DNA of 64,000 bases. It comes from a virus (taxonomy: Duplodnaviria; Heunggongvirae; Uroviricota; Caudoviricetes). Both the position numbers and the translations under genes were made by a program. The notes under the pieces were generated by a model. That model was not told where the DNA came from, made no database searches, and saw only the letters and a list, made by a program, of their open reading frames with translations. The first letter of the stretch is position 1. Each line of letters opens with the position of its first letter. The stretch is from the IMG/VR virus record IMGVR_UViG_3300008111_001458; one strand, 5' to 3'. This document shows positions 4,109 to 53,107 of this stretch, in pieces.

Positions 4109-4239
4109 TTTTTAATCTTTTAATTTTAGCATTTGCTGTATACTGTTTAGTAGTATGGATCCATGCGTTAGTAACATACGATTGGACTAAATTTGAAGAG
4201 GATTCAAAAGACGACGATTTTTTGAAACCTTATGAATAA
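4105..4239 (+). CDS. Small membrane peptide (44 aa)
   Basis: Hand-found ORF MIFNLLILAFAVYCLVVWIHALVTYDW... It ends just upstream of the tmRNA acceptor piece. Confidence 0.2.
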   Translation: MIFNLLILAFAVYCLVVWIHALVTYDWTKFEEDSKDDDFLKPYE

Positions 4240-4243
4240 AGAA

Positions 4244-4307
4244 TTGTTGTAATTCCTTCAAAGTGAAGGCATTCTGGACGCGGGTTCGACTCCCGCCAGG
4301 TCCACCA
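4244..4307 (+). ncRNA. ssrA: tmRNA acceptor piece (3' half of the tRNA-like domain: T-arm + acceptor 3' strand + ACCA) of a permuted two-piece tmRNA
   Basis: The sequence ggcattctGGACGCGGGTTCGACTCCCGCCaggtccACCA is near-identical to the 3' end of canonical tmRNA. It ends in a discriminator A plus CCA. No 5' acceptor strand lies upstream, so it is not a tRNA. Confidence 0.6.
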
Positions 4308-4428
4308 ATAGAGATGATTATGAACACTACACAAACTATAAAATTAGCAGGATTTTTTCTAGGAACGTATATTTTATACAGACTAGGATTAGAAGTTTGG
4401 TGTATAGTTTATGGACTACTTTATTGAT

Positions 4429-4646
4429 GGGCCTGACATGGTTTCGACAGGGTGAGATAATAGAGACGGCAACACGGTAGGCGATGACCGTAAATCAAGC
4501 AAATCTATAAATGCAAACGATAATGCATTTGACTTTACAGCAATGAGCTTCACCGGTAACACTGTTGCCAATGACAGCAAATTTGCTCTAGCAGCCTAAG
4601 AAACTGCAAGTCCGGGGTAGCTATACCTTGTAACCCAAAATAGTGA
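4429..4646 (+). ncRNA. ssrA: tmRNA coding piece (5' acceptor strand GGGCCUG, D-loop analogue, resume codon and tag ORF ANDNAFDFTAMSFTGNTVANDSKFALAA, stop TAA at 4597-4599)
   Basis: gggcctgacatggtttcgacaggg matches the canonical tmRNA 5' end GGGGCUGAUUCUGGAUUCGACGGG. GGGCCUG pairs with caggucc of the upstream piece with a G3-U wobble. The reading frame 4514-4599 begins GCA-AAC-GAT (A-N-D) and ends ALAA-stop. Confidence 0.6.
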
Positions 4647-4672
4647 AAAGCCCCCTTGGGGGCTTTTCTTTA
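4646..4672. terminator. Bidirectional rho-independent terminator
   Basis: GC stem agccccc-tt-gggggct followed by a T run. It sits between the tmRNA coding piece (+) and the convergent lipoprotein gene (-). Confidence 0.6.
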
Positions 4673-5134: not shown

Positions 5135-5246
5135 AATAGTTTCCTTATAAATGATTTTATTTGGAAACTACTTAGATCAACTTACTCCCAATATAATATT
5201 GGCATATAAGGCTTAACAGCGAAAGAATTACTTCGGTAACTTTTTT

Positions 5247-5275
5247 TTGAGTTTTTATTCTAAAGACTATATAAT
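5247..5275 (+). promoter_or_regulatory. sigma70-like promoter TTGAGT-17-TATAAT
   Basis: -35 at 5247-5252 and a perfect -10 TATAAT at 5270-5275. The predicted transcription start coincides with ATG 5283, so the mRNA would be leaderless. Confidence 0.4.
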
Positions 5276-5282
5276 AACTCTT

Positions 5283-6137
5283 ATGAAACGTACCTCTATT
5301 AAAGAACTTTTTGGCGGTGAAGTTGCCTTCACCAAGTTCATCTCTCAAGATATTCAAACTGCCAAACGTTTGATTAATGCTATTTCTGCAGACTATGACG
5401 ATGATTATACAGTCAAACCAGAGGATCATACGATTGATTCAAAACGTGTTGATCTTGTAATCCGCGATTCAGAAAACGTAGTTGCGTATGTAATTGAAAG
5501 CCAAGATTGTACTGGCTGGCTTGATTCAATTCATGCCAGCAAGATTCTTTATTATATGTACGAAAAAGAATGTTCAGAAGGTATTTTACTTTGCGAAGAT
5601 GCAGATGAGCATATCAAAGGATTTGTTCGTTGGTGCAATGAAAATACACCTGTACAGATTTGGTTGATGAGTGCTGTATGTTTTGAAGTTAATAATTCAA
5701 AGTATGTAGACTTCATTCCTTTGATTCGGCCAGGTATGCTTAAAGATAAAAAGATTCGTCGAGTATCATCAAACGGATCTACATCAGCGTCTGTAGACTT
5801 TTCAGAAATGTTACAAGAAAAAGCAGACCAACATCCTGGTTTATTCACGAATGTAAGATCAAGATATCTCAGTACAAATGGTGTAGGAGGATCTGGGATC
5901 AACGTAGGTATTAGTCCACGTAAGAGTGGTTACTTTATGGTTACCATTTGGCATGCAGGCAAATGGAATAATGATAAATTTAGAAATAGTTTTAATGAAT
6001 TTGTTAAAAACGAAACTAATCTAGAACCTAAGTGGCAAGATAGACAGAGTTATGTAAATGTAGATTCTTGGGACGAAGGTATAGAAGTTTATAAAAAATT
6101 TATAGATGGTTTAAAGTCTAAACAGATTGTCGGATAA
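5283..6137 (+). CDS. Hypothetical protein (possible PD-(D/E)xK-like core; unassigned)
   Basis: The track ORF 5247-6137 is trimmed to the in-frame ATG 5283 (MKRTSIKELF) because the promoter lies inside its 5' end. No recognisable family. Confidence 0.45.
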   Translation: MKRTSIKELFGGEVAFTKFISQDIQTAKRLINAISADYDDDYTVKPEDHTIDSKRVDLVIRDSENVVAYVIESQDCTGWLDSIHASKILYYMYEKECSEGILLCEDADEHIKGFVRWCNENTPVQIWLMSAVCFEVNNSKYVDFIPLIRPGMLKDKKIRRVSSNGSTSASVDFSEMLQEKADQHPGLFTNVRSRYLSTNGVGGSGINVGISPRKSGYFMVTIWHAGKWNNDKFRNSFNEFVKNETNLEPKWQDRQSYVNVDSWDEGIEVYKKFIDGLKSKQIVG

Positions 6138-6180
6138 TTTGATATTGAAAAATCCTATTATCGTCATTGAAAAATATTAG

Positions 6181-6200
6181 ACAAAATCTATAGATTTTGT
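6181..6200. promoter_or_regulatory. Perfect 20-bp palindrome ACAAAATCTATAGATTTTGT (candidate operator) upstream of ahpC
   Basis: Exact inverted repeat lying immediately 5' of the -35 element. Confidence 0.45.
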
Positions 6201-6236
6201 TTGATTTATAGGATAACTAAATGTATAGTTATACAT
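6201..6236 (+). promoter_or_regulatory. ahpC promoter TTGATT-17-TATAGT with a second palindrome ATGTATA-GT-TATACAT overlapping the -10
   Basis: -35 at 6201-6206 and -10 at 6224-6229. The inverted repeat at 6221-6236 overlaps the -10, the usual position for a repressor site. Confidence 0.45.
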
Positions 6237-6283
6237 AGAACTTGTTGTTCTTTACGTTTTCAACACACACTTAAGGAGATAAA

Positions 6284-6817
6284 ATGAAAACAGTTGGTGA
6301 TAAAATTGAAGCATTTGCCGTAACCGGCGTTAATCCTGGTAAAGATGATTTCTTTACCATTACTGAAAAGTCATACGAAGGTAAGTGGAAAGTAATTGTT
6401 TACTATCCAAAAGACTTTACATTTGTATGCCCAACAGAAATCGTAGCATACGATAAATTGAATAGTGATTTTGCCGATCGTGACGCAGTATTACTAACTG
6501 GTTCAACAGATAACGAATTCTGTAAACTGGCATGGCAAGCAGCCCATGAAGATCTTAAAAAAATCAAACATGTTCAGTTTGCTGATACACAGCGTAACGA
6601 ATTGAGCCTTATTGATCAGCTTGGCGTATTCTATGCTCCAGCAGGTGCTGCACTTCGTGCAACATTCATTGTTGATCCAGAGAATGTTATCCAACACATT
6701 ACTGTCAACAACTTGAATGTTGGTCGCTCACCAGAAGAAACACTTCGTGTATTAGACGCATTGCAAACAGGTGAACTTTGTGCTTGCAACCGTACAGTTG
6801 GCGGAGAGACACTGTAA
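6284..6817 (+). CDS. ahpC: Peroxiredoxin (AhpC/Prx1 family, typical 2-Cys)
   Basis: 177 aa with the peroxidatic motif FTFVCPTEI. RBS aaggag is 7 nt upstream. Confidence 0.85.
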   Translation: MKTVGDKIEAFAVTGVNPGKDDFFTITEKSYEGKWKVIVYYPKDFTFVCPTEIVAYDKLNSDFADRDAVLLTGSTDNEFCKLAWQAAHEDLKKIKHVQFADTQRNELSLIDQLGVFYAPAGAALRATFIVDPENVIQHITVNNLNVGRSPEETLRVLDALQTGELCACNRTVGGETL

Positions 6818-7332
6818 TGACTGCTTGGGTAGATCAAATTAAAGAAACTATTCCGGACTATGCTAAAGACACTCGTCTTAACATTGATGCAGTAGTTAAG
6901 CGTTCTACTCTACCCCAAGAAGAAGCAGAAGCTGTTGCTATCGCAGCGGCTTTTGCCACAGGTAATAGTAAACTGTGGACTTGGATGCAGAGTCAGGCAA
7001 TAGATAAGAAAGAAACTGAAGCAGCAGTTACCGCAGCTAGTCTAATGGCCATGAACAATGTATGGTACCCATTCGTTGAAATGGCTGAGGATCCTAATCT
7101 AACAGGATTACCGGCACAGTTGCGTATGAACGCAATTACTACACATGGCGGCACTACTAAAGCAAGATTTGAAGCATATTCTTTATCTGCTAGTATTGTT
7201 GGCAAGTGTCATTTTTGTGTGAAAGCACATTATGAAACACTCAAGCAAGAAGGATATACAGTAGAACAATTACGTGATATTGGGCGCATAGCGGCAGTTA
7301 TCACCAGTGTATCCAGAGTACTAAATAGTTAA
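6817..7332 (+). CDS. ahpD: AhpD-like carboxymuconolactone decarboxylase family protein (alkylhydroperoxidase partner)
   Basis: The start is reset to ATG 6817 (TAATG overlap with the ahpC stop; same frame as the 6778 track ORF). It has a CxxxH motif (KCHFCVKAH) and is adjacent to ahpC. Confidence 0.6.
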   Translation: MTAWVDQIKETIPDYAKDTRLNIDAVVKRSTLPQEEAEAVAIAAAFATGNSKLWTWMQSQAIDKKETEAAVTAASLMAMNNVWYPFVEMAEDPNLTGLPAQLRMNAITTHGGTTKARFEAYSLSASIVGKCHFCVKAHYETLKQEGYTVEQLRDIGRIAAVITSVSRVLNS

Positions 7333-7369
7333 TCGCCGTAACAGAACTGTAATCTTAGGTCTCTTAAAT

Positions 7370-7405
7370 AAGAAGGTACAACATAGTGTTGTACCTTTCT
7401 TTTTA
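7370..7405 (+). terminator. Rho-independent terminator after ahpD
   Basis: 14-bp stem aagaaggtacaaca / tgttgtacc(t)ttctt followed by TTTTT. Confidence 0.55.
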
Positions 7406-7428
7406 TTCACTCACACAAGGAGATTACA

Positions 7429-8454
7429 GTGAAAAAAATCATACTGACACTACTGGCGGCATTGACCGTTTCAGCACATGCAGCGGATCTAACAGGAGCA
7501 GGGGCAACATTTCCTTATCCTATCTATTCAAAATGGGCCGAAGCATATAAAGCAGCAACAGGCATCGGACTCAACTATCAATCAATTGGTTCAGGCGGCG
7601 GCATCCGTCAAATCAAAGCTAAGATTGTAGATTTTGGCGCCAGTGACATGCCACTAAAACAAGACGAATTAGACAAAGACGGTCTAATGCAATTCCCTGC
7701 AATCATTGGCGGAGTTGTGCCGATTGTAAACATTGATGGTATTGGTGCAGGACAACTTAAACTTACCTCAGACATTATTGCTGACATCTATATGGGTAAG
7801 ATCGTCAAGTGGGATCATCCCAGCATCACAGCAATCAATCCAGGATTAAAATTACCTAATGCAAATATCTCTGTGGTTCACCGCAGTGATGGTTCAGGTA
7901 CAACCTTTATATGGACTAACTGGTTAAGCAAGACTAATAAAGAATGGGCAGATAAAGTCAAAGACGGCACCGCAGTCAAATGGCCAATGGGTGTAGGTGG
8001 TAAGGGCAATGAAGGTGTAAGTGCTGTGGTCCAACAACTAAAAAATAGTATTGGTTATGTAGAATATGCCTATGCTAAACGCAACAAGATTCCACACGCA
8101 CAAGTCAAAAATCGTGATGGCAACTTTGTACAGCCTAGCGATGATACATTCAAGGCAGCGGCAGCAGGTGCAGACTGGGCAAATGCTCCAGGGTTCTATC
8201 TATTGCTAACAGACCAAAAAGGCAAGGACGCTTGGCCTATTACAGGTGCCAGTTTCATTCTCATGCATAAGCAACAAGAGGATGCACTAACAGGTCGTGC
8301 AGTTCTTAAGTTCTTTGATTGGAGTTACAAGAACGGCGGGCAGATGGCTACAGATTTAGAATATGTACATCTTCCACAATCTGTTATTACATTAGTACAG
8401 AATCATTGGAAGACTCAGTTAAAAGATAAGGATAGCAACGCTATTTGGAAGTAA
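7429..8454 (+). CDS. pstS: Phosphate ABC transporter substrate-binding protein
   Basis: 341 aa. GTG start with RBS aaggag, a signal peptide, and the PstS-family motifs TFPYPIY ... SIGSGGG ... GASD. Confidence 0.85.
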   Translation: MKKIILTLLAALTVSAHAADLTGAGATFPYPIYSKWAEAYKAATGIGLNYQSIGSGGGIRQIKAKIVDFGASDMPLKQDELDKDGLMQFPAIIGGVVPIVNIDGIGAGQLKLTSDIIADIYMGKIVKWDHPSITAINPGLKLPNANISVVHRSDGSGTTFIWTNWLSKTNKEWADKVKDGTAVKWPMGVGGKGNEGVSAVVQQLKNSIGYVEYAYAKRNKIPHAQVKNRDGNFVQPSDDTFKAAAAGADWANAPGFYLLLTDQKGKDAWPITGASFILMHKQQEDALTGRAVLKFFDWSYKNGGQMATDLEYVHLPQSVITLVQNHWKTQLKDKDSNAIWK

Positions 8455-8464
8455 GCAGTACCCA

Positions 8465-8495
8465 CCGCCAGTGATCACTGGCGGATCTATTTTAT
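8465..8495 (+). terminator. Terminator-like perfect palindrome CCGCCAGTGATCACTGGCGG followed by a T-rich tract
   Basis: 20-bp perfect inverted repeat at 8465-8484 followed by atctatttta. Confidence 0.45.
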
Positions 8496-8506
8496 AAGGA
8501 TTTAAA

Positions 8507-9919
8507 ATGAAAACATTACTTAAGGTAATGCTGGCGTCATCTGTGACAGCATTTATACCTGCACCTGCACACGCAGACGAATACAAAGACACACTTGAAA
8601 TTCTAAAAAATAAAAATATTCTTACACAGAAAGAATATGATATTAAACTTAAAGAATATGAAGAAAAAGAAGAAAACAAAAAGTTTATTGAACAGAGAAT
8701 TGACAGAGATGTCAGCGACTCAGTCAAATACAGACAGGCCAGAGTTAATGACGGATCAGTCACAGAAAACGGAATTGGACTCAAAAGCAAAGATGGCGGC
8801 AACACCGTCCAGCTTACAGGTCGACTACATATGGACTATCGTCAGTACTCCCCGGATTACGGTACAGGTCAAACCACAGATTCGTACCAGAATACTGCTG
8901 AAGCACGACGAGCCAGATTTGGAGTAAGAGGTCAGTTTGCCAAAGATTTCAAATATCAATTATTAGCAAACTTTGGTGCCAGTGATGGTTTTAGTTCAAC
9001 ATCGAGTACAGCAGATGAAATGTGGGTCAACTATGCTGCAAATCCAGAAGCACAGTTTCAATTTGGTTTATTCAAGATGCCATTCAGTCTTGAGCAGTTA
9101 ACAAGTTCAAACAATCTTGACTTTATGGAACGCAGTTTAATTGGTCAAAATGATACAGAGTTTATACCTGCTAAAGAAACTGGATTTATGTTACATGGTA
9201 TTCCTAAGCCTGGCTTAACATACGCTCTAGCATTAAGCAGAGGTAAGAGCAATAAGAGTGCCGAGTTTGATGGCTTTGACTACATTAGTCGTGTAACTAC
9301 AAACATCGCTGAACTAACCGGAAGCAAAGCATATACAGCACATTTAGGTGCCGCTTATAGTACAGGTGAAATCAAAAGCGGTGTAGCTCCAGCAAGTGGT
9401 AGAACAGAATCACGTATGCAATCAGGATGGTTTACAGGATCTGCTCTTAGCGGTGCAACTACAAGAACACGTCAAGGCCTCGAAGCTGCATTTGCTTATA
9501 ATGCATTTAAGGTGCAAGGCGAACATTTTCAATTTAATTATGATCCTGCAACAGGTAACGATCAGAAAATAAATGGATACTATGTGCAAGCTGTGTATAA
9601 TCTAACAGGTGAGTCACACTCATATAAAGATGGCGCATTTGGTTGGATCAAACCTGCTAATCCTTTGGACAAAGGTGGTCGTGGTGCATGGCAAGTTGGT
9701 GTACGTATGAGTGAGTTTGATGCCAGTGACATTACTGTAGCTACCGGCAAATCAAATCGTGCTACTGCTATGACATATGGTGTTACCTGGTTCTGCACAG
9801 ACAACCTACGTTTTATGTTAAATTATGTAGACACAAAATTTGATAGTCTAGTAGGCAGTTCAGGTAGTCGTGTAAACGGCGAACGTGCTGTTATGTTTAG
9901 AAGCCAACTAAGTTTTTAA
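8507..9919 (+). CDS. Outer-membrane porin, probably phosphate-selective OprO/OprP-like
   Basis: 470 aa with a signal peptide (AHA cleavage), C-terminal aromatic residue (F), beta-barrel-like alternating pattern, and position directly after pstS. The family call rests on weak motif recall. Confidence 0.5.
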   Translation: MKTLLKVMLASSVTAFIPAPAHADEYKDTLEILKNKNILTQKEYDIKLKEYEEKEENKKFIEQRIDRDVSDSVKYRQARVNDGSVTENGIGLKSKDGGNTVQLTGRLHMDYRQYSPDYGTGQTTDSYQNTAEARRARFGVRGQFAKDFKYQLLANFGASDGFSSTSSTADEMWVNYAANPEAQFQFGLFKMPFSLEQLTSSNNLDFMERSLIGQNDTEFIPAKETGFMLHGIPKPGLTYALALSRGKSNKSAEFDGFDYISRVTTNIAELTGSKAYTAHLGAAYSTGEIKSGVAPASGRTESRMQSGWFTGSALSGATTRTRQGLEAAFAYNAFKVQGEHFQFNYDPATGNDQKINGYYVQAVYNLTGESHSYKDGAFGWIKPANPLDKGGRGAWQVGVRMSEFDASDITVATGKSNRATAMTYGVTWFCTDNLRFMLNYVDTKFDSLVGSSGSRVNGERAVMFRSQLSF

Positions 9920-9941
9920 TAAATAACTTGGCATTTATAAT

Positions 9942-9967
9942 GCCCCATCTAATGGGGCTTTTTTTTG
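9942..9967 (+). terminator. Rho-independent terminator (gccccat-cta-atggggc + T9)
   Basis: 6-7 bp GC stem with a 3-nt loop followed by nine T. It contains the recurring CTAATGGG motif. Confidence 0.7.
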
Positions 9968-9977
9968 GACACACTAA

Positions 9978-10157
9978 ATGGAAACACACAAACGAACACT
10001 AACACGAGCAATTACATGGAGAATTACCGCAACTCTTATAACTGCGGCATGGACAGGATTGGCAGGAGCTATCGTTATTAATATTTTTATGACTGTTGCC
10101 CACTACATACATGAACGATTTTGGCTAAAAATTGAGTGGGGTAAACAGATCAATTAG
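9978..10157 (+). CDS. DUF2061-like small membrane protein (59 aa)
   Basis: Hand-found ORF METHKRTLTRAITWRITATLITAAWTG... The ITWRI..T...W pattern is characteristic of DUF2061. Confidence 0.4.
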   Translation: METHKRTLTRAITWRITATLITAAWTGLAGAIVINIFMTVAHYIHERFWLKIEWGKQIN

Positions 10158-10265
10158 CCTATTTTAATGAATTTCACTATGGTTTTCTGGTAGTTTTTAT
10201 CATATAATGCAGATACATACTGTTGCAATAGTATGTTTTTATTGTTGTTAAAAAGGAGAAGCATT

Positions 10266-10337
10266 ATGTGGACCAAGCCAGAAGCAACCGAGATGCGTTA
10301 TGGTTTTGAGATCACTATGTACATCGCTAATCGCTAA
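10266..10337 (+). CDS. pqqA: PqqA-like 23-aa peptide (coenzyme PQQ precursor-peptide homolog)
   Basis: [23 protein letters not shown] compared with Klebsiella PqqA [23 protein letters not shown]: same length, 12 of 23 identical, and the conserved E-x-T-x-Y ... NR core (the Glu and Tyr cross-linked by PqqE). RBS aaggag is 8 nt upstream and its own terminator follows. Confidence 0.5.
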
Positions 10338-10356
10338 TACATAGTATCAAAAATCA

Positions 10357-10379
10357 AAACCCGCTCCGGCGGGTTTTTT
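10357..10379 (+). terminator. Rho-independent terminator after the PqqA-like ORF
   Basis: cccgc-tccg-gcggg stem followed by TTTTTT. Confidence 0.6.
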
Positions 10380-16009: not shown

Positions 16010-16591
16010 ATGAACTCAGATATAATGATAGACCTCGAAACCCTTGCCACCACTCCTGATGCTGCAATTTTAAGTATTGGCGCAGTGAAATTTGATCCGT
16101 TTGGGCAAGAATTAAAAGAACCAGCAATGGAAAGTTTTTATCTACGTGTAGATATTGACAGTTGTGATCGGTTAGGATTAGCTACATCACAAGATACTCT
16201 TGAATGGTGGGCAAAACAAAGTCAAGCAGCTCAAGACGAAGCATTTGGAACCGAAGGTAGAGTTGATATTGTTAGTGCTATGAATCAACTTTATAAATTC
16301 TGTTGGGGTGCTAAACGTGTATGGAGTCACGGTGCTGGCTTTGACGTTGTTATTTTAGAAACAGTATTTCGCAAAATGGGAAAAGGTTACCCTTGGAGTT
16401 TCTGGCAAGTAAGAGATACTAGAACAATTTTTGATCTTGGTATCAATCCAGACCGCCCTGAAGTATTAGCTCACCATGCGTTACACGATTCTTATAATCA
16501 AGCAATTGGTGTGCAAAATGTTTTCCGTAGATTGCGAACATCGTCGACATTAGACGGCCAATTGCTTTCTCCATTAAAGGATTCAAGATGA
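16010..16591 (+). CDS. DEDDh-type 3'-5' exonuclease (DnaQ / RNase T / oligoribonuclease-like)
   Basis: Exo I motif IMIDLETL, Exo [14 protein letters not shown] and Exo III HHALHDS (H-x4-D). Confidence 0.65.
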
Positions 16592-17667
16592 GAATCGAAG
16601 ATGAAATCAAATTAGATTTCAAAGATGTTCTTATTCGTCCTAAGCGCAGTACTTTATCAAGTCGCAAAGAAGTTGACTTAACAAGGACTTACAAATTTAA
16701 ACACAGTCGCGCCGAGTGGACAGGAGTTCCGATTATGGCCAGTAACATGGACGGTGTTGGTACACTAGAAATGGCTCATGCTCTATATCAACACAAAATG
16801 TTCACTTGCCTAGTTAAGAATATCAGTACGGTATACTTTGAAACAACCGTACAAGATATAGGAGGCAATCATTTCGCAGTAAGCACAGGGACTTCCGAAA
16901 AGGACTTTGAAAGATTAAGTAACATACTTAATTCTTATTCCGAAATAAAATTTATCTGTATAGATGTAGCAAATGGATATAGCGAACACTTCGGGGACTA
17001 TGTAGAAGAAGTGCGTGAGGCATTTCCTAATCACACAATTATCGCAGGTAACGTTGTTACCGCAGACATGACACAGGAGTTAATTTTACGTGGAGCAGAT
17101 ATTATCAAAGTGGGCATTGGTCCAGGCAGTGTTTGTACAACTAGGATACAAACTGGCGTCGGTTATCCTCAGCTCAGTGCTATTATTGAGTGTGCTGACG
17201 CTGCTCATGGTCTCGGCGGCCATATTATTGCTGATGGTGGTTGTGTGTGTCCCGGTGACATTGCTAAGGCGTTTGGCGCCGGAGCAGACTTTGTAATGTT
17301 AGGAGGCATGTTAGCCGGTCATGATGAGGGCGGCGGTGAAGTTATTGAAGAAATGCACGAACTTTCAAAACTTCAAAAAGATATGTTTTCAAATGATTAT
17401 GAAATTAAAAAATATGTAGAATTCTATGGAATGAGTTCAAATACTGCTATGAACAAGCATCATGGTGGCATAGCTGAATATCGTTCATCAGAAGGACGTA
17501 CGGTAAGAGTACCGTATAAGGGCCCGGTCCAAAGTACAATTTTGGATATGTTGGGCGGACTGCGTAGTTCTTGCACATATGTAGGTGCTGCAAGTCTTAA
17601 ACAATTATCTAAATGTACTACATTTATTAGGGTCAATATGCAATTTAATGATGTCTTTACGAGATAA
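16588..17667 (+). CDS. guaC: GMP reductase
   Basis: [23 protein letters not shown] ... [46 protein letters not shown] is almost collinear with E. coli GuaC. No CBS insert, which marks GuaC rather than IMPDH. Confidence 0.85.
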
Positions 17668-17748
17668 ATAAAAACGCAATTAGCACCCAATGGGCTAATT
17701 GTAACGAGCTCAGTGCTCATTAAATTCTTACTTTTTAAGGAGAAAAAT

Positions 17749-19662
17749 ATGTCAAAAATCATCGGTATCGATTTGGGTACCACAAACTCATGTGTAGCTG
17801 TTATTGAAAACGGCAAATCCAAAGTAATTGAAAACTCAGAAGGCGCAAGAACAACTCCGAGTATTGTTGCTTATACAGACAGCGATATTTTAGTAGGTGC
17901 TTCAGCAAAGCGTCAGGCGGTAACTAATCCCAAAAACACAATTTATGCATCTAAGCGGTTAATTGGACGTAAGTTCAATGAACAGGCTGTTCAGAAGGAC
18001 ATTGACCTAATGCCTTATGAAATTGTCAAGGCAACAAATGGTGATGCTTGGATTCGCGCACAAGGAAAAGAAATGGCACCTCCACAGGTGTCTGCAGAAG
18101 TTCTTCGCAAGATGAAAAAGACTGCAGAGGACTATTTAGGGCATGAAGTTACACAGGCTGTTATTACAGTGCCTGCTTACTTCAATGATAGTCAAAGACA
18201 GGCAACTAAAGATGCCGGTCAAATCGCTGGCTTAGAAGTTCTACGTATTATTAACGAACCTACTGCGGCTGCATTAAGCTACGGTGTTGACAAGACAGAC
18301 AAAGCTGATCGTAAGATTGCGGTGTATGACTTAGGTGGTGGCACATTTGATATCAGTATCATTGAGATTGCCAACGTCGAAGGCGACAAACAAATTGAAG
18401 TATTGTCAACAAACGGCGATACATTCTTAGGCGGTGAAGACTTTGACCAGCGCATTATGGATTATCTGGTTGAGGAATTTAAGAAAGAGCAAGGCATTGA
18501 TCTAACTAAAGATATGTTGGCACTACAACGTCTTAAGGACTCTGCTGAAAAAGCTAAGATTGAATTATCTAATTCTACACAAACTGAAGTTAATCTTCCA
18601 TACATTACTGCCGATGCTAGTGGTCCTAAACATCTAGTGGTAAAAATTACCAAGGCAAAATTGGAACAGTTAGTTGACGATTTAATTCAACGTTCATTAG
18701 AACCTTGTCGTATTGCTATGAAAGATGCCGGAGTTACCGCAGATCAGATCGACGAAGTTATTCTAGTTGGCGGCCAAACTCGCATGCCAAAGGTACAAGA
18801 AGAAGTAGAACGTTTATTTGGAAAAGCGCCACGTAAAGATGTTAACCCAGACGAAGCAGTAGCAGTTGGTGCTGCTATCCAAGGTGCTGTGTTGGGTGGT
18901 GATCGTAAAGATGTCCTATTGTTAGATGTTACTCCATTAACTTTGGGTATTGAAACAGTAGGCGGTGTAATGGCCAAACTGGTTGCTAAGAATACTACTA
19001 TTCCAACTAAGGCAAATCAAATTTTCAGTACAGCTGATGACAATCAACCTGCTGTTACTATTCGTGTGTTCCAAGGAGAACGCGAATTGGCACATCATAA
19101 CAAATTGTTAGGCGAATTTAATCTTGAAGGTATTGATCCAGCACCACGTGGTATGCCTCAAATTGAAGTTACATTTGATATTGATGCTAATGGTATTTTA
19201 AGCGTAAGTGCCAAAGACAAAAATACTGGTAAAGAAAATAAAATTACCATTAAAGCTAATAGCGGCATTACTGAAGATGAAATCAAACGTATGATCGCTG
19301 AAGCAGAACAATATGCAGAAGAAGATAAAAAAGCACGTGAAGTTATTGAAACACGTAATGGTGCATTATCTGAACTGTATACAATTCGCAGAGAATTAGA
19401 AGCAGAAAAAGATCTTGCTACAGAAGAAGAATGGAAAATAATTGAAGATGCACTAGAGGCTGCTGAAAAATTAGTCAATGATAATAGTGACATTGAAGAA
19501 ATTAAGAAAGGTCCTTTCAATGTAGCCGATGCTGCAAAACCTTTGTTTGAAAAAATTAAAGCCAAACGCGAAGCTGCCAAAGCAGAACAATCTGCACCGC
19601 AGCCAACTGATGGTGAAGTGATCGATGCTTCCTTTACAGCAACTGAAGGCAAGGCATCTTAA
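17749..19662 (+). CDS. dnaK: Hsp70 chaperone DnaK
   Basis: [33 protein letters not shown] and the EEVD-less bacterial C-terminus are present. The start is reset to ATG 17749 (RBS aaggag). Confidence 0.93.
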
Positions 19663-27458: not shown

Positions 27459-28268
27459 ATGAAAATTAGATTAGTATCAGATCTCCATTTAGAATTTTCA
27501 GATTGCTTCGATATTAAGAATGATGATAATATCGATGTCTTAATTCTTGGCGGTGACATTATGATCGCCAGTAAAGTTCTAAAACCTCAAAGTGAATACG
27601 GTATTCGTTTTCGTGACTTTCTAAAACGAATGAGCTTTCAGTTTCCTCATGTTATCTACATAATGGGCAATCATGAATTTTATAGTGATGGTCATTGGGT
27701 AGGTAGTGTTGAACAAATGCGCATGGCTTGCGGTGTACATGATAATATCTACATGTTGGAGAGAGATACTAAAATTATCGACGATGTAGTTTTTGTTGGT
27801 GGAACATTATGGACAGACATGAATAAGTACGATCCATTAACTATGCATGCCGTCCGAGACATGATGAACGATTATCGTGCTATTCGTAATGATCAGGCTG
27901 GATATCGAAATCTTAAACCTGCCGACACTGCCGAACGTCATCGTCAAACAGTAGATTATATTAAACATGTTGTTAAAGAACACAAAGATAAACAGTGCGT
28001 AGTAGTTGGACATCATTCTCCAAGTTGGTTAAGTGTGCATGAACAATATAAGAATGATTACATAATGAACGGTGCATATCACAGTGATCTCTCTAATATC
28101 ATGTTAGATAATCCTAATATTAAATTGTGGACGCATGGCCATACACATCATTGCTTTGACTATATGATTGGAGAAACTAGGATAGTTTGTAATCCTAGAG
28201 GTTATCATCAGGCAAGTGGGTGGAGTGAAGACACTAACTGGAACCCTTCATTATGTATAGAAATTTAA
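27459..28268 (+). CDS. Calcineurin-like metallophosphoesterase
   Basis: Motifs DLHLE, GDIM, GNHEFY, GHHS and GHTHH. Confidence 0.7.
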   Translation: MKIRLVSDLHLEFSDCFDIKNDDNIDVLILGGDIMIASKVLKPQSEYGIRFRDFLKRMSFQFPHVIYIMGNHEFYSDGHWVGSVEQMRMACGVHDNIYMLERDTKIIDDVVFVGGTLWTDMNKYDPLTMHAVRDMMNDYRAIRNDQAGYRNLKPADTAERHRQTVDYIKHVVKEHKDKQCVVVGHHSPSWLSVHEQYKNDYIMNGAYHSDLSNIMLDNPNIKLWTHGHTHHCFDYMIGETRIVCNPRGYHQASGWSEDTNWNPSLCIEI

Positions 28269-29062
28269 TCTTATTAATCCTGTTGTTCCCTATTAAGAGT
28301 TGGGCCGAATCCAACTCTTATCTTTATAATATCACCAATGATAAAATTGTCATGGGCGATAGATTAGATGAAGTACGACCAATTGCCAGCATAACAAAAA
28401 TTATGACTGCTATGATTGTATTAGACTACTATAAATCGTTATCTGATAAAATTAAAACTGGCACCGGAATGCTACCTCGTAAAGAGTATACTCTCGAACA
28501 AATACTAACTGCTATGTTGGTACGAAGTGATAATGGCGCTGCAGAAACATTGGCTAGAAATTTTCCCGGAGGTAGGAAGGAGTTTCTAATCCAGATGAAT
28601 CGCAAAGCCAATCAACTTAAAATGTATAATACCAACTTTGATGATCCAACAGGATTGAGTAGAAAAAACGTATCTTCTATTCACGATCTTAGTTTAATGA
28701 TGACAACGGCTCAAAAATATTCTAAAATTAGAGAAATTAGCATTAAGAAACAGGCATTATTTGAAACCAAATATAAAAAGAAAATTAGAACTATTCATTT
28801 GCATAATACTAATACACCAATACTTTTTGAATTTGATACTGTAGTGGTGTCTAAAACAGGGTATACCAACCCAGCTGGATGGTGTGTGGCAATGGTAGTT
28901 GAAAAGTTCAATAACACTTATGTTGTAATTGTCTTGGGTGCTAAAAACAAAGCGCATCGTATTGACAAAGTTAAGGAAATCATGTATAATCATATTGTTG
29001 ATGAAAGAGTTTTTGATAAAGACATAGACTATGATTTCCAAATCCCCCATCCTATTTTATAG
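28253..29062 (+). CDS. Serine-type D-alanyl-D-alanine carboxypeptidase (S11 / PBP5-like), secreted
   Basis: Signal peptide. SITK (SxxK) at 28390-28401, SDN at 28522-28530 and KTG at 28850-28858, in canonical order. Confidence 0.7.
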   Translation: MYRNLILLILLFPIKSWAESNSYLYNITNDKIVMGDRLDEVRPIASITKIMTAMIVLDYYKSLSDKIKTGTGMLPRKEYTLEQILTAMLVRSDNGAAETLARNFPGGRKEFLIQMNRKANQLKMYNTNFDDPTGLSRKNVSSIHDLSLMMTTAQKYSKIREISIKKQALFETKYKKKIRTIHLHNTNTPILFEFDTVVVSKTGYTNPAGWCVAMVVEKFNNTYVVIVLGAKNKAHRIDKVKEIMYNHIVDERVFDKDIDYDFQIPHPIL

Positions 29063-29504
29063 AAAAGAAGGTCGCCGTTATATTCCGGTAGCAGAATATG
29101 ACAACGAACTATTAGATAGTTTCCCCAAAGGGGATCATCTTGTGTCTGTATACCCCGGCGGCACTAGTCGTCGCTTTAAGATTGATCCAGCTTATGCTCC
29201 TATGATTGCTGCGGGTCGTGTTGCCGAAGACAAAATCTGTAGGGCTATCGCCAAAGCCGCTGAACTACGTCCTCCTCGTTCTCCAATTACTCCTCAGCAG
29301 AAGAAAGCCTGGGAAGCATTGGCCAAAGCATTTGGCGATGAACTTTGTACCTTACAAGGATTGAGCATTCATGATTGTGCAGAAGCAGGTATTAAAGCTA
29401 TGCAGGAAGAAGCAGATAAACTTTTAAAACATGAAAGTGTTCGAAAGGCGTATGATCATTTTATGTTAATGTGCGAACTTACAAAAGAAAATACAGGAGA
29501 TTAA
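29031..29504 (+). CDS. Hypothetical protein
   Basis: 157-aa ORF. Confidence 0.4.
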   Translation: MISKSPILFYRKEGRRYIPVAEYDNELLDSFPKGDHLVSVYPGGTSRRFKIDPAYAPMIAAGRVAEDKICRAIAKAAELRPPRSPITPQQKKAWEALAKAFGDELCTLQGLSIHDCAEAGIKAMQEEADKLLKHESVRKAYDHFMLMCELTKENTGD

Positions 29505-29506
29505 AA

Positions 29507-29686
29507 TGGCACTACCATTATTAATAATTGGATTTGCTTCTTTGTTTGGCAGTGGTTGTACCTTTATGGACTGGCGCAGTCATCGAGAAGAAACATCTAA
29601 AATTGTTTGGACTGTTGGTCTGGCTATTATTGGTATGTATATGGTAGTTGCTGTTATTGGACAGTTAGTAAGGCATTGCTCATGAG
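29507..29686 (+). CDS. Small 2-TM membrane protein (59 aa)
   Basis: Hand-found ORF MALPLLIIGFASLFGSGC... Confidence 0.3.
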
Positions 29687-30317
29687 TTTTAATTTAGGTG
29701 ATATTTGGTCATATGAAGATAAAACTAGGAATCTTCCTAGTATTCAAGTAGTACGATATCCAACTATCCATTATCAAGATTGGTTTCCAGTATCTGTAAT
29801 CAATCCTAATTTTGAAAAAGGTCCTTGGATTGCTGGCGGTGCTGGTTTACGTTGGTATCAAGGAATTCCTGTAGGGGAAAGCGACATAGATGTATATTGT
29901 TCTTCTCCCATGCAGGCAGAGCAGTTACAACAGAAAATTTTTGCTTCAATGGCCTGTACAGAAAAATACAAATCAGATAACGCTGTTACATTAGAAGTTT
30001 CAAAAGATGATCAGACATGGACTGTACAAATAATTAAGAAAAACTATTTTACTGATATGCAAAAAGTCATTGATAGTTTTGATCTATCAGTTTGTCAAGT
30101 TGCTACTGATGGAAATACCTACTTGTTAGGCAATCATACAGCCAAGGATATTCGTGAACGCAACTTAAGAATGCGTATGCCTTTACAAGCAGATGCACTC
30201 AAGCGCCTTATCAAATATTGGACCTACGGGTATCGTCCAGTAGACGGATTATTAGAAGCAATTCAACACAATCCAGTAGGTCGTTGGGAATTTAACCCTG
30301 CAGAGGATTATCTATGA
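29682..30317 (+). CDS. Pol-beta-superfamily nucleotidyltransferase-fold protein
   Basis: GGAGLRWYQGIPVGESDIDVY matches G[GS]-x9-13-[DE]h[DE]h. A downstream FDLSV is a candidate third acidic residue. The start is reset to ATG 29682. Confidence 0.45.
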   Translation: MSFNLGDIWSYEDKTRNLPSIQVVRYPTIHYQDWFPVSVINPNFEKGPWIAGGAGLRWYQGIPVGESDIDVYCSSPMQAEQLQQKIFASMACTEKYKSDNAVTLEVSKDDQTWTVQIIKKNYFTDMQKVIDSFDLSVCQVATDGNTYLLGNHTAKDIRERNLRMRMPLQADALKRLIKYWTYGYRPVDGLLEAIQHNPVGRWEFNPAEDYL

Positions 30318-30706
30318 GAGCAGAACACAGTTGGAGTTTATTAGATCCAAGACCAGTTTTAATGTATCTAGAACATCACGATGATTATATCGTCTATTGG
30401 AATGGTGTTGTTATGCCACACAGCTATGCACTTGCTATGGCAGTAGAACAGTTTGGAATTTATGCTACTCCAGAAATGAAAAATGCAAGGTTGACAAATT
30501 ATAAGAAATTATATTATACTAACGCATTTGAAACTCGAGCTTGGGACAGTAAGATAATGGATCATGATGTTTATTCATATCTAAAAAATATAATGTCATA
30601 TCATATTACTAAAACATGTGAAGGTAAAGAACCACAAGAAATATTATCCTGGTTTGATTATAAACGAGCCAGAACAGAAAATTATCAACCAAAGGAAGAG
30701 AAGTAA
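30314..30706 (+). CDS. Hypothetical protein
   Basis: 130-aa ORF. Confidence 0.4.
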   Translation: MRAEHSWSLLDPRPVLMYLEHHDDYIVYWNGVVMPHSYALAMAVEQFGIYATPEMKNARLTNYKKLYYTNAFETRAWDSKIMDHDVYSYLKNIMSYHITKTCEGKEPQEILSWFDYKRARTENYQPKEEK

Positions 30707-30918
30707 TGGATATGAATCAAGCAGCAGTATTTTTAGCAGGTAGTGTTTTAACTATGATTGGTTTTATAGTTATAGTTGTGGGATTAGTTATTATTAACAA
30801 TATTCTTCATAGGTATTGGAAACCTGTTAAGATGTGGAAATTTGATGTATATCCTCCGCAGTTCATGCATCAAGAACCTTTAATGGATCAACCTAAAGAA
30901 AAGGAACTTAAGAAATGA
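30706..30918 (+). CDS. Small membrane protein
   Basis: 70 aa with one TM. Confidence 0.4.
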   Translation: MDMNQAAVFLAGSVLTMIGFIVIVVGLVIINNILHRYWKPVKMWKFDVYPPQFMHQEPLMDQPKEKELKK

Positions 30919-31424
30919 TTACCTTAAAACAGTTCATGGAAACCGTTGACTACCGTATCACTGAAGGTAGTGAGTATATGTGGCAATGCTACGGTCCTAA
31001 TGCTTATAGATTAGATTCATGGTCTGGCGATCAAGACGGGCATTCTGTTAGTATTGTATTCGATACTAAAACTCAAGAAGTCTACGAAGCCAGCGCATAT
31101 GATTATAAAAATCAACGTGCCTATAGATTGATTAATACTGATTATAAGACGGATCACGATGACGAATCTGAGGATCGTGGTGTGTTAGGTAATCAAGCAT
31201 GGGATGATGTTAATTATGTTGATCTAGATGTCGATGAAGACTTTTTAGAAAAAGCACAGGCAATTGTAAATGAGGAAGATTACGACACTCGGGTTCAAGT
31301 TCAAGTAGAATTTACGGATGACGAACTATTTCGTTACATGAAATTTGCACATGATAAAGATATAACATTTAATCAATTAGTTGAGGAAGCTGTAAAATCA
31401 GCAATCAAGGAACACCAAGCATGA
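30915..31424 (+). CDS. Acidic hypothetical protein
   Basis: 169 aa, D/E-rich. Confidence 0.4.
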   Translation: MITLKQFMETVDYRITEGSEYMWQCYGPNAYRLDSWSGDQDGHSVSIVFDTKTQEVYEASAYDYKNQRAYRLINTDYKTDHDDESEDRGVLGNQAWDDVNYVDLDVDEDFLEKAQAIVNEEDYDTRVQVQVEFTDDELFRYMKFAHDKDITFNQLVEEAVKSAIKEHQA

Positions 31425-31597
31425 TTAAAGTTGTACTGTCGTTCTTAGTTGTTGCTGTTGTATTTCATTTTGTAATCGAATCTTGGAGATATACTTCAGG
31501 AAAAGAACGTTGGAATAGTATAAAAACCTTGACATACAGTCTAGGTCTTGCTACACTAACTTTCATAGCATTATCGCTATTTGTTTTTTTATTTTAA
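31421..31597 (+). CDS. Small 2-TM membrane protein (58 aa)
   Basis: Hand-found ORF MIKVVLSFLVVAVVFHF... Confidence 0.3.
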   Translation: MIKVVLSFLVVAVVFHFVIESWRYTSGKERWNSIKTLTYSLGLATLTFIALSLFVFLF

Positions 31598-31609
31598 GGA
31601 TTTACACAC

Positions 31610-32407
31610 ATGAAACGTATCGCAACTCTTGGCCTTATCGCTGCCGCTGTGTTGGCAACTGGCTGTACTCGTATTGAAACCGGTGAGGTTGGTGTACGAG
31701 TTGGTTTTGACAAACAGGTTCAACCTGGTGAACTATTGCCTGGTTCGTTTAATCAGGTATTGATTGGCGACGTGCTTACATTCCCTATCAAGGATGTCAA
31801 CGTCACACTAGAGAACATGACTCCTGTGGCCAAAGATAATAGCACAATGAAAGACTTTGATGCTGTGGTTGTTTACAACATCAACCCACAACAAGTATCA
31901 GAACTGTATGCTACCAAGAACAAGGCTTTCCACGCTGACTTCAAAGGCGACACTTATGTGATGTATAACTACATTGTTCAGAATGCTCGTAATGCTATCT
32001 ACAAAGCCGCACGTAAGTACGAAGCCTTGGACATGGCAGACAATCGTGGCGAAATGGAGAAGTTCATCCAAGACGAGATCGTTCGCAACTTGTCAGAAGA
32101 AAAGTTGGACGGTACTATTATGATTAGTCAAGTGCTGATTCGTAATGTTGTGCCAGCAGACAGTGTGGTTGAATCAGCTAACGCATTAGTTCGTTCAAAG
32201 AACGAGTTGAAGCAGAAGGAAGTTGAAGTTAAGACTGCTGAAGCCGAAAGCCGTCGTATGGCAGCATTGGCTAACAACTCAGGTGCATCAATTGCATTCA
32301 TGCAGGCCCAAGCCATGTTAAATATCTCCGAAGGTATTAAGAACGGTCAAGTGCAGACTATTGTAGTGCCTTCAAACTTTAACGCTTTGATGTTACCCAA
32401 ACAATAA
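31610..32407 (+). CDS. Lipoprotein with SPFH/band-7-like domain
   Basis: Lipobox LATGC, and the C-terminal region resembles the HflK/C-type SPFH domain. Confidence 0.45.
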   Translation: MKRIATLGLIAAAVLATGCTRIETGEVGVRVGFDKQVQPGELLPGSFNQVLIGDVLTFPIKDVNVTLENMTPVAKDNSTMKDFDAVVVYNINPQQVSELYATKNKAFHADFKGDTYVMYNYIVQNARNAIYKAARKYEALDMADNRGEMEKFIQDEIVRNLSEEKLDGTIMISQVLIRNVVPADSVVESANALVRSKNELKQKEVEVKTAEAESRRMAALANNSGASIAFMQAQAMLNISEGIKNGQVQTIVVPSNFNALMLPKQ

Positions 32408-38020: not shown

Positions 38021-38950
38021 ATGCAACCAGTACAAATAGCTATGTCGGGAGTTACTCCCGGAACTTATGGAAACAACACCCAGATTCCTTCTTTCACAGT
38101 TGATGCTAGAGGTAGACTAGTATGGGCTGCAAATGTTGATATTCAATCAACATTTAAATTTAAGGTTAATGATGACGATAGAATTGAAACCGTTAATTTA
38201 AGTAATGATTCATTCAATTTTAGAAGTGGACATGGAATCAATATAACACCGGCACCAGACGGAATTAATATTGATTTTGATAGATCAATAATTCCCGATA
38301 CTAGTGACTTTGTTAGAAAATCAGAAACATCTCATCAATTTTTAGGATCTATAAGATCTCCGTTAATTTATTCTCAAGAAGGAATATTTGATTCAGTTAC
38401 TACAAAAGAAATATTAATAGATGGTGTATATACTAGATTTCAAACAAAAGGGTTCCATGTAGATTTTACAGACTTTGATGTTCTTGATTCTAAAGTTTTT
38501 CAAATCGATGGAATTTCAAAAAATACTAATACTGAAACAGCAAATTTTAATGTTGATATTACATCTTCTTGGTTAAAATTCACCAGTCAAATTGAACTTC
38601 CTAATTCTGCTTTAAGTTTTCCAGATGGCCATGCTTTGGGAATTATTTCTTTTCAAGATGGCGGAATTGAAATGGGATATGGTGCAGGATTAATTGCTAT
38701 CAAAAATTTTAATAATGATGGATCTTCACCGACAGGAATTTGCGTTATTACTTCAAATGGGAAAGATGATATTTTTGAAAATCCAACAAAGTTTAACTTT
38801 GGTGGCGACGGAGTATTTGAAGCACCAATTTTAAAAACAAAAAGCTATACAAGTTTGCCAGATAATCCCAAAGAAGGTTGGATAGTATTTGATGGCAACA
38901 ACAAACAATTTAAAGGGTGGAACGGAACTAGTTGGATAACTTTAGGATAA
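38021..38950 (+). CDS. Hypothetical protein, possibly structural; last + strand gene before the strand switch
   Basis: 309-aa ORF. It overlaps a convergent minus-strand gene by 23 nt. Confidence 0.4.
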   Translation: MQPVQIAMSGVTPGTYGNNTQIPSFTVDARGRLVWAANVDIQSTFKFKVNDDDRIETVNLSNDSFNFRSGHGINITPAPDGINIDFDRSIIPDTSDFVRKSETSHQFLGSIRSPLIYSQEGIFDSVTTKEILIDGVYTRFQTKGFHVDFTDFDVLDSKVFQIDGISKNTNTETANFNVDITSSWLKFTSQIELPNSALSFPDGHALGIISFQDGGIEMGYGAGLIAIKNFNNDGSSPTGICVITSNGKDDIFENPTKFNFGGDGVFEAPILKTKSYTSLPDNPKEGWIVFDGNNKQFKGWNGTSWITLG

Positions 38951-42087: not shown

Positions 42088-42110
42088 CTAGTTATTTAAG
42101 TGAGATATCT

Positions 42111-42797: not shown

Positions 42798-43150
42798 TGT
42801 CTTGGGGTTATCATATTATGTTAGATTGTGCCGGTTGTGATTTAAAAAAAATTAAAGATAAAGATCACATATGGGCATTTGTATATACATTAATAAAACG
42901 TGTTGAAATGGAAGCGCACGGAAAAATGATCATTGAAAATTTATTACCAGGAACAGACAATGAAGGATATAGTGTATTACAAATGATTACTACAAGTAAT
43001 ATAAATTGTCATTTTGTAAACAAGACTGCTGATGCTTATATTGATTTGTTTAGCTGTAAAGAATTTAAAGCAGAAATAGTTATTGCTACTGTTAAAGAAT
43101 TTTTTAATCCAACCAGCATCAAATTAAACTTTGTAGAAAGACAGGCTTAG
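42797..43150 (+). CDS. speD: S-adenosylmethionine decarboxylase proenzyme, small bacterial pyruvoyl type (SpeD/SpeH-like)
   Basis: HIMLDCAGCD...IKDKDHIWAFVYT ... SNINCHFVNKTADAYIDLFSCKEF parallels B. subtilis SpeD (HVISELWGCD...ESHLTIHTWPE...AAIDVFTCG). Confidence 0.55.
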   Translation: MSWGYHIMLDCAGCDLKKIKDKDHIWAFVYTLIKRVEMEAHGKMIIENLLPGTDNEGYSVLQMITTSNINCHFVNKTADAYIDLFSCKEFKAEIVIATVKEFFNPTSIKLNFVERQA

Positions 43151-45451: not shown

Positions 45452-45459
45452 GAAAAATA

Positions 45460-53090: not shown

Positions 53091-53107
53091 AAGTCTATAA
53101 ATACCGC

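Follow-up and report, generated by a model that had tools for sequence, protein, structure and literature searches.

What switches the peroxide- and phosphate-related genes that a phage carries along is the question raised by positions 6138-9967 of a 64,000-nt stretch of DNA (hereafter the window) from the tailed-phage record IMGVR_UViG_3300008111_001458. The window belongs to a large phage-like genome of probably 150-350 kb in full, and the region in question holds four genes: ahpC, ahpD, pstS and a porin gene of the OprO/OprP family. Phage auxiliary genes are mostly catalogued by the protein they encode and how they are switched is rarely known, the one well-studied case being cyanophage pstS under the control of host PhoB. 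In a preliminary description of the locus, repressor control of ahpC by a host peroxide or metal sensor had been proposed, with palindromes at the promoter as operators. Based on comparison with related viral and bacterial loci, the region is read here, with moderate confidence, as two auxiliary cassettes of a large T4-like freshwater phage, which are probably wired to the host regulators OxyR (ahpC and ahpD) and PhoB (pstS and the porin gene).

The conserved array upstream of ahpC

Upstream of the ahpC promoter lies a putative OxyR-type operator made up of five tetranucleotide boxes (Table 1). The published OxyR consensus comprises four ATAG elements spaced by 7 bp, with ATAGATTNAATCTAT as half-site, and OxyR half-sites defined by chromatin immunoprecipitation in Pseudomonas aeruginosa include ATTGATAAAACCTAT (PMC3378865). 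The corresponding four-tetrad pattern, ATAG-N7-CTAT-N7-ATAG-N7-CTAT, is matched in the window by ATTG-N7-CTAT-N7-ATTG-N7-TTAG at 6144-6180, to which a fifth box, CTAT, is added at 6188. The first half-site, ATTGAAAAATCCTAT, has the T-N11-A dyad of LysR-type operators, and boxes 1 and 3 are supplied by a direct repeat of ATTGAAAAAT (6144-6153 and 6166-6175). This repeat had previously been given as two copies of CATTGAAAAAT at 6163-6186, which needs correction in position as well as extent, the base preceding the repeat differing between the two copies.

Alignment of 69 distinct related ahpC upstream regions yields the consensus ATTGATTTTTCCTAT-N7-ATTAAAAAATAnnnn-N7-CTAT, in which the middle element can also be written AT(T/A)(A/G)AAAAATAnnnn, and the consensus of 36 relatives reads ATTGATTTTTCCTAT-N7-ATTAAAAnATA. 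A 48-nt phage matrix built from 36 relatives, with the window excluded, scores 45.7 bits at position 6144, the runner-up in the window having 14.1 bits. Across 2.13 Mb of phage loci, this matrix gives 83 matches of at least 18 bits, 51 of which lie before ahpC and 28 before an operon of rubrerythrin and DUF3501 genes. The remaining four have no downstream open reading frame (ORF), at least one of them being the reverse strand of an ahpC site, and no match above this threshold in the same loci precedes any other gene. The rubrerythrin promoters carry the same boxes, with a spacing of 80 bp counted by hand in one of them (L245). Such sharing of one operator between two antioxidant operons that are otherwise unrelated is the appearance expected of a peroxide regulon.

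Among 33 distinct promoters, 23, that of the window included, place box 1 exactly 80 bp from the -10 hexamer, and seven place it at exactly 72 bp. Between the four-box site and the -35 hexamer lie 20 bp, and between box 5 and this hexamer 9 bp; the last CTAT of the bacterial homologues and of the 72-bp phage class directly adjoins the -35. The core promoter is conserved across relatives as a -35 of TTGAyy, a 17-nt spacer and a -10 of TAyAAT, and the TTGATT-17-TATAGT promoter of the preliminary description is indeed present and also called by a promoter scan (9/12 matches). A partly conserved ATAG (6208-6211) lies inside the spacer, and transcription is predicted to start near 6236-6237.

The same array is found in bacteria. 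Seven fetched bacterial loci have a divergent OxyR gene, the OxyR matches being confirmed by the invariant C199 and C208 in the alignment, and the intergenic regions of these oxyR-ahpC divergons contain the array, e.g. as ATTG-N7-CTAT-N7-..-N7-CCAT. It is also seen in Burkholderiales ahpC promoters, together with an extra ATAG just before the -10; such a further ATAG in the ahpC promoters of Oligella, Undibacterium and Ampullimonas is a point of likeness. With the OxyR-activated ahpC promoters of E. coli, P. aeruginosa and Burkholderiales (ahpC-ahpD), the phage element shares four ATAG-like tetrads with 7-bp gaps, the T-N11-A dyad, the A/T richness and the position 5' of the sigma-70 promoter of a peroxiredoxin gene. 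In contrast to them, it has five boxes, is without an oxyR gene nearby and, in most phage promoters, lies one more helical turn from the -35; additionally, and unlike the bacterial consensus, the phage four-box site scores best in inverted orientation. A bacterial matrix, for which the published OxyR consensus served as seed and 63 bacterial ahpC upstream regions as the only training set, reaches at least the 95th background percentile in 52 of the 69 phage regions and at least the 99th in 36 of them; against a background matched in guanine-plus-cytosine (GC) content, the corresponding numbers are 45/69 and 15/69. The window site obtains 13.0/10.1 bits with this matrix and exceeds the 99th percentile of background tiles.

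Conservation, specificity and geometry of the motif as well as its likeness to bacterial OxyR sites are demonstrated by these comparisons. As to the identity of the binding protein and the direction of regulation, we infer that a host OxyR tetramer would bind the array at 6144-6191 upstream of the sigma-70 promoter of ahpC. Upon oxidation by H2O2, the promoter-proximal dimer of OxyR may move between two half-sites that overlap (6166-6180 and 6177-6191), following the 'sliding dimer' model of LysR regulators. OxyR shifted in this way would activate RNA polymerase, and the phage peroxiredoxin system would be made while the infected cell is under peroxide stress. At ahpC promoters, OxyR is classically an activator and not a palindrome-binding repressor. 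A search with an E. coli OxyR query and two peptide patterns found no OxyR-like gene in the window, in the phage flanks or on IMG/VR contigs that bear ahpC; a host factor is therefore the simplest reading.

Several points weigh against the assignment to host OxyR. The boxes are degenerate, with box 4 (TTAG) being the weakest and off-consensus, and the motif as a whole is AT-rich within AT-rich DNA. Compared with bacterial ahpC promoters and the 72-bp phage class, an extra helical turn separates the four-box site from the -35. With the bacterial matrix, the window site is a moderate match (8-13 bits) that ranks third in the window, and random 64-kb sequences average a best score of 13.6. A blind scan of the window would leave the site non-significant, and its weight derives from position and from conservation in the comparative set, not from score alone. 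The search with two peptide patterns could overlook a divergent LysR regulator, and possession of OxyR and PhoB by the host is assumed. The two higher matches to the bacterial matrix (42408 and 46697, minus strand) lie inside ORFs and were hence treated as chance. A degenerate three-box pattern gave one match in the window alone compared with 0.6 expected, which is not significant.

LysR operators being degenerate in general and the T-N11-A pattern being common to them, the conserved boxes might alternatively be bound by another host LysR-type regulator or by a phage-encoded factor, which would time expression in the infection cycle and not sense peroxide. Both the layout of five boxes and the 20 bp that separate the four-box site from the -35 differ from classical OxyR sites and would suit such a binder, and only about 64 kb of a probably much larger genome is visible. 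Nevertheless, the motif is found only before two unrelated antioxidant operons, ahpCD and rubrerythrin, it resembles the sites in oxyR-ahpC divergons and in Burkholderiales ahpC promoters, and no LysR gene was found in the window or the phage flanks, which makes a binder other than OxyR unlikely. A second alternative dispenses with a sensor altogether. A-tracts recur at roughly 11-bp spacing (AAAAA at 6148, 6170 and 6183) in a region of about 70% A+T, and strong sigma-70 promoters with A/T-rich DNA 5' of them are common among the early promoters of T4-like phages. The conserved region could thus be a structural element (phased A-tracts, an UP element or curvature) of a strong constitutive early promoter. 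The information content of the motif is, however, concentrated in the ATnG/CnAT tetrads and not only in the A-tracts, other sigma-70-like promoters of the window (e.g. at 10381) lack the array, and the element is confined to antioxidant genes. A merely structural role is hence regarded as quite improbable, and binding by host OxyR is retained as the preferred reading of the array.

The palindrome and the inverted repeat at the ahpC promoter

Both symmetries that had been reported for the ahpC promoter, the perfect 20-bp palindrome and the ATGTATA-GT-TATACAT repeat over the -10, are present in the window (Table 1). They had been interpreted as repressor operators; such a repressor would be dimeric, of the PerR, Fur or Irr type or a phage repressor, and would shut off ahpC. 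In favour of this, the palindrome abuts the -35, the second repeat covers the -10, and a perfect palindrome of at least 20 bp arose in only 14 of 100 dinucleotide shuffles of the window. Neither repeat is, however, conserved in the 69 related regions, and no palindrome of the PerR, Fur or Irr type is conserved at ahpC promoters, where the OxyR-type array is the conserved element. At the position equivalent to the palindrome, relatives show 0-7 of 10 complementary pairs (mean 3.6). Its left arm holds the conserved box 5 (AAAAnCTA) and no other part is conserved; the right arm (TAGATTTTGT) is lineage-specific, its counterpart in the alignment being the -35 (TTGATTTTGT) in the 72-bp promoter class. 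As for the 7+7 inverted repeat at the -10, it is at chance level and unremarkable, and in relatives its right arm is not conserved, the -10 itself (GTAyAAT) alone being kept. A search for further copies of the 20-bp palindrome or the -10 inverted repeat in the window returned none, the second perfect palindrome of the window being the pstS hairpin at 8465-8484. Exact copies of the 20-mer occur in 17 public viral or metagenome contigs, all of them in contexts unrelated to the ahpC locus. Absence of the palindromes from related phages was among the outcomes that the preliminary description had itself set as refuting. With no repressor gene linked to the locus and a variable gene 5' of ahpC among relatives, repression through these sites appears highly improbable. 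Judged from the alignments, the palindrome and the -10 inverted repeat are lineage-specific by-products, not conserved operators. What survives of the earlier proposal is the idea of a host peroxide sensor, and what has to be given up are the palindromes as its target and repression as its logic. The case also calls for caution, as the symmetry that strikes the eye most, the perfect palindrome of 20 bp, turned out not to be the functional signal.

A role of the palindrome in RNA would be compatible with OxyR control of ahpC. Lying 44 nt past the stop codon of the upstream gene (5247-6137), it could form a hairpin that terminates the transcript of this gene; its fold has -10.8 kcal/mol (z-score of -4.6), and the same 20-mer is seen in terminator-like contexts with A- and T-run flanks in unrelated contigs. 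Against such a terminator stand the A/U-rich stem without a clean U-tract, the terminator scan, which made no call, and the only relative sharing the upstream gene (L081), which is without a comparable hairpin. Termination at this site is thus considered rather improbable, too.

The predicted ahpC transcript begins with a short hairpin (Table 1), and a CA-rich leader and a ribosome-binding site, AAGGAGA (6273-6279), come 3' of it. Among relatives, the leader is conserved as TTTTCAACACACACAAGGAGA. Most of 55 folded related leaders have a hairpin in the same place with a differing stem sequence, as judged by eye, and folding gave z-scores below -1.5 in 24 of the 55 (mean of -1.28). Short hairpins with differing (covarying) stems are observed where the transcripts of ahpC, pstS and rubrerythrin are each predicted to begin, and the CA-rich leader ACACACAAGGAGA comes after them. 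These 5' hairpins may stabilise the mRNA or enhance translation.

The pstS-porin cassette and its promoter

For pstS, the preliminary description had stated that neither an obvious Pho box nor an obvious promoter precedes the gene, which does not agree with the presence of CCGTAAC-AGAA-CTGTAAT and a TAAATA hexamer upstream (Table 1). The putative promoter has no -35 hexamer, the Pho box being in its place, and the two 7-mers match CTGTCAT at 4/7 and 6/7 positions, respectively. Of 38 distinct regions upstream of related pstS genes, 27 contain the pattern YYGTNAY-N4-YYGTNAY, compared with a background of 0.03 per kb, and the copy at pstS is the sole plus-strand match in the window. The pstS family consensus reads TTGTAAC-N4-CTGTAAT, 11 nt, TAAATA, with the 11-nt gap between box and hexamer being kept in the window and in every relative of that promoter type checked by eye. 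Phage pstS copies that are more distant carry the near-canonical CTGTAAC-AAAA-CTGTAAC. The layout matches that of E. coli K-12 pstS (...CTGTCAT-AAAA-CTGTCAT...CTGTCAC, 10 nt, TATTTT), so likeness to bacterial PhoB sites is demonstrated here as well. A PhoB-type promoter with its Pho box at 7336-7353 would drive both pstS and the porin gene from a predicted start at about 7377, and the two genes would be induced once host PhoR/PhoB senses phosphate limitation.

This arrangement resembles that of cyanophages, in which a phage-borne pstS likewise follows a Pho-box-like element and the two-component system of the host senses phosphate limitation; control of cyanophage pstS by host PhoR/PhoB was reportedly described by Zeng and Chisholm in 2012. 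In contrast to the cyanophage case, the Pho box of the window belongs to the proteobacterial type, with CTGTCAT-like 7-mers and a 4-bp spacer, and not to the cyanobacterial type PyTTAAPyPy(T/A), and pstS is coupled to an OprO/OprP porin gene in another phage lineage and host. Two points speak against PhoB control in the present phage. Although host PhoBR control of cyanophage pstS is documented, predicted Pho boxes in phage genomes have been reported to be unreliable without binding assays (PMC10976474). Moreover, the core of the T4-type late promoter TATAAATA is similar to TAAATA, and pstS might also be read as a late gene. A T4-type late promoter for pstS is retained as no more than a caveat, TATAAATA and TTTAAATA being depleted in the window and absent at pstS.

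The hairpin with T-run that follows ahpD likely terminates the ahpCD transcript; in full, its fold has -15.0 kcal/mol. The start predicted for the Pho-box promoter falls inside the left arm of this hairpin, and from 7377 onward only -4.9 kcal/mol are left. Hence, pstS transcripts would carry only a weak remnant, and ahpCD transcription could be terminated without blocking pstS. The GC-rich hairpin between pstS and the porin gene is likely an attenuator or partial terminator within the operon. The earlier statement that each gene is followed by its own terminator applies to ahpD, pstS and the porin gene, but not to ahpC, whose stop codon overlaps the ahpD start (TAATG, 6815-6819), an overlap that suggests translational coupling.

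PstS scores above two curated equivalog cut-offs (NF008171, 438.8 bits vs 339; TIGR00975, 396.9 vs 205), and no NCBIfam model matched the porin. The latter has 88 relatives in IMG/VR, and pstS lies 5' of the porin gene in 79 of 80 fetched related viral loci. Porin homologues at 81-90% identity are all found in phage-like metagenome contigs, beside T4 rIIB or ribonucleotide reductase genes, and a host lineage was not obtained from the porin homologues because these close ones are all phage-like. In related phages, pstS and the porin gene occupy differing genomic positions (e.g. in the 280-kb contig GCA_013573015.1, L324, and in L325), where ribonucleotide reductase genes, or a T4 rIIB homologue and rubrerythrin, are their neighbours. 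The varied positions are consistent with a mobile cassette that carries its own Pho box.

Gene content, genomic setting and significance

The four gene calls of the preliminary description were borne out by family assignments (Table 1). AhpC has the peroxidatic cysteine in FVCPTE and a C-terminal CxC with the resolving cysteine, as read from its sequence, and its closest solved structure is Mycobacterium tuberculosis AhpC (2BMX, 4.7e-43). The CxxC...H motif of AhpD aligns with that of M. tuberculosis AhpD (1GU9/1KNC; 8.6e-22 for 1GU9). The M. tuberculosis pair, the reductant of which is lipoamide on DlaT with Lpd, is thus the nearest solved relative of both proteins, with the difference that the genes are phage-encoded here. 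Both proteins miss the NCBIfam equivalog cut-offs (115 vs 272 for AhpC and 118 vs 192 for AhpD) and are therefore divergent members of their families.

Table 1 Features of the window discussed in the text (positions in nt from its first letter; a dot marks features without strand)
Feature	Positions	Strand	Details
tmRNA (transfer-messenger RNA)	4209-4669		permuted (two-piece), betaproteobacterial type; tag peptide ANDNAFDFTAMSFTGNTVANDSKFALAA
OxyR-type multi-box operator (putative)	6144-6191	+	five boxes, 11-bp register
Boxes 1-5 of the operator	6144-6147, 6155-6158, 6166-6169, 6177-6180, 6188-6191	+	ATTG, CTAT, ATTG, TTAG, CTAT
Perfect 20-bp palindrome	6181-6200	.	ACAAAATCTATAGATTTTGT; fills the 20-bp gap from box 4 to the -35
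Sigma-70-type ahpC promoter	6201-6229	+	-35 TTGATT 6201-6206; 17-nt spacer; -10 TATAGT 6224-6229
Inverted repeat	6221-6236	.	ATGTATA-GT-TATACAT; overlaps the -10
5' transcript-end hairpin	6237-6251	+	AGAAC-TTGTT-GTTCT; at the predicted start
ahpC	6284-6817	+	PF00578; 2-Cys peroxiredoxin, AhpD-dependent (mycobacterial) type
ahpD	6817-7332	+	CMD/AhpD family alkylhydroperoxidase, CHFC...H
pstS Pho-box promoter (putative)	7336-7370	+	CCGTAAC 7336-7342; AGAA; CTGTAAT 7347-7353; 11 nt; -10 TAAATA 7365-7370
Hairpin with T-run	7372-7405	+	hairpin 7372-7398; after ahpD
pstS	7429-8454	+	periplasmic phosphate-binding protein; signal peptide; GTG start
GC-rich hairpin	8465-8484	+	between pstS and the porin gene; -14.6 kcal/mol
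Porin gene, OprO/OprP family	8507-9919	+	signal peptide; PF07396 Porin_O_P, 1e-51, 345/370 profile positions
Intrinsic terminator	9942-9966	+	GCCCCATCTAATGGGGC then T8; hairpin 9942-9958; closes the pstS-porin cassette
Ribonucleotide reductase small subunit, endolysin-like gene, DnaK			encoded within the window

At least 597 AhpC relatives are found in IMG/VR; the best 80 of them have 83-94% identity, many lying on contigs of 100-360 kb. Pairing of ahpC with ahpD is the rule in nearly all related loci, and a recurring order is seen: a lysozyme-like gene, DUF454, a variable part, ahpC, 0-2.7 kb of cargo, ahpD, a further variable part, orf123 and a SleB-like gene. The pstS and porin genes are variable cargo in the ahpC loci of relatives. 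Inserted cargo of 0.4-2.7 kb splits ahpC from ahpD in many relatives (e.g. L009, 6534-6956; L018, 6552-8768). Examples, judged from translations, are a GDSL/SGNH-like ORF of 137-140 amino acids and, in L018, an aldolase-like gene together with a serine hydroxymethyltransferase-like gene. AhpC of cultured or chromosome-scale Burkholderiales loci has 62-68% identity to phage AhpC, and the few matches at 70-82% identity come mostly from short contigs of metagenome-assembled genomes, which may be phage-derived.

The window itself contains no rubrerythrin gene. In related phages, an operon of rubrerythrin (PF02915) and DUF3501 is present (L182, 10757-11979; L194, 12343-13403; L244-L323), with 387 relatives in IMG/VR, and the same cassette of OxyR-type operator and promoter as at ahpC precedes rubrerythrin in about half of the distinct upstream regions. 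Tentatively, a widespread family of large freshwater T4-like phages may thus be envisaged that carries a portable peroxide-responsive cassette beside the mobile PhoB-controlled pstS-oprP cassette. In the same tentative reading, the portable cassette would have a geometry precise to the base pair: an OxyR operator of five boxes would be followed, at 80 bp, by a sigma-70 promoter and then by a 5'-terminal hairpin and a CA-rich leader. It would be placed before at least two unrelated antioxidant operons, ahpC-ahpD and rubrerythrin-DUF3501. A separate observation concerns a 23-codon ORF (10266-10337) with its own ribosome-binding site and a terminator at 10356-10377, the peptide of which appears to resemble PqqA-type precursor peptides. 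Similar peptide ORFs sit just 5' of rubrerythrin in the related phage loci L297, L309, L317 and L323.

The GC content across the window is 29-40%, and the betaproteobacterial-type tmRNA gives a hint at the host lineage. Neither a DNA search of positions 5200-10200 nor a tblastn search with the porin returned a match among GenBank phages; there is therefore no cultured close relative. Elsewhere in the window, an ORF at 21356-22036 matches ferredoxin-dependent bilin reductase (PF05996, 3.5e-16), which is unexpected as the other signals of the phage indicate a betaproteobacterial host. A minus-strand block (38928-57407) of lower GC content (29-34%) contains at least four radical-SAM genes, two of which carry B12-binding domains, and many ORFs without known function. 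Host-like genes in 16588-19662 and 28253-32407 encode an enzyme of the GMP reductase/IMPDH family, DnaK, a D-Ala-D-Ala carboxypeptidase (Peptidase_S11), a calcineurin-like phosphoesterase and an SPFH/Band 7 protein.

Binding of OxyR to phage-borne sites has been described for the mom operon of phage Mu (Table 1 of PMC3378865) and for pf4r of Pf4 (PMC7549136). Host OxyR acts on phage DNA in these systems, as it would here. There, OxyR represses life-cycle genes, whereas activation of antioxidant auxiliary genes is inferred for the present locus, the site of which is conserved across hundreds of contigs. Papers describing an OxyR-type operator 5' of ahpCD or rubrerythrin in a phage were not found in the literature search, and a search on OxyR of Nitrosomonas as a host was uninformative. 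Among large freshwater phages, the oprP-carrying amoC-phages of ammonia oxidisers have genomes of 155-338 kb with 36-39% GC and encode a phosphate-selective porin (bioRxiv 10.64898/2026.06.18.733297). The window is like these phages in having a porin of the OprO/OprP family and a similar GC content, and it also carries a betaproteobacterial-type tmRNA; ahpC, peroxiredoxin, OxyR, pstS and promoter are not mentioned in that preprint.

With these cassettes, the locus would join a known class, namely phage auxiliary genes under host regulators. Comparison across hundreds of uncultured phage contigs suggests OxyR as a second host sensor, besides PhoB, for ahpCD and, in relatives, for rubrerythrin. 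If OxyR and PhoB control is confirmed, peroxide and phosphate in the environment, and not the infection clock alone, would determine when lake phages express these genes. The operator motif could then also serve to find more members of phage 'stress regulons' and to infer host regulators. If the portable cassettes are what they appear to be, the virus would keep a small 'stress regulon' plugged into two sensory systems of the host, possibly keeping peroxide-sensitive, phosphate-limited hosts productive during infection.

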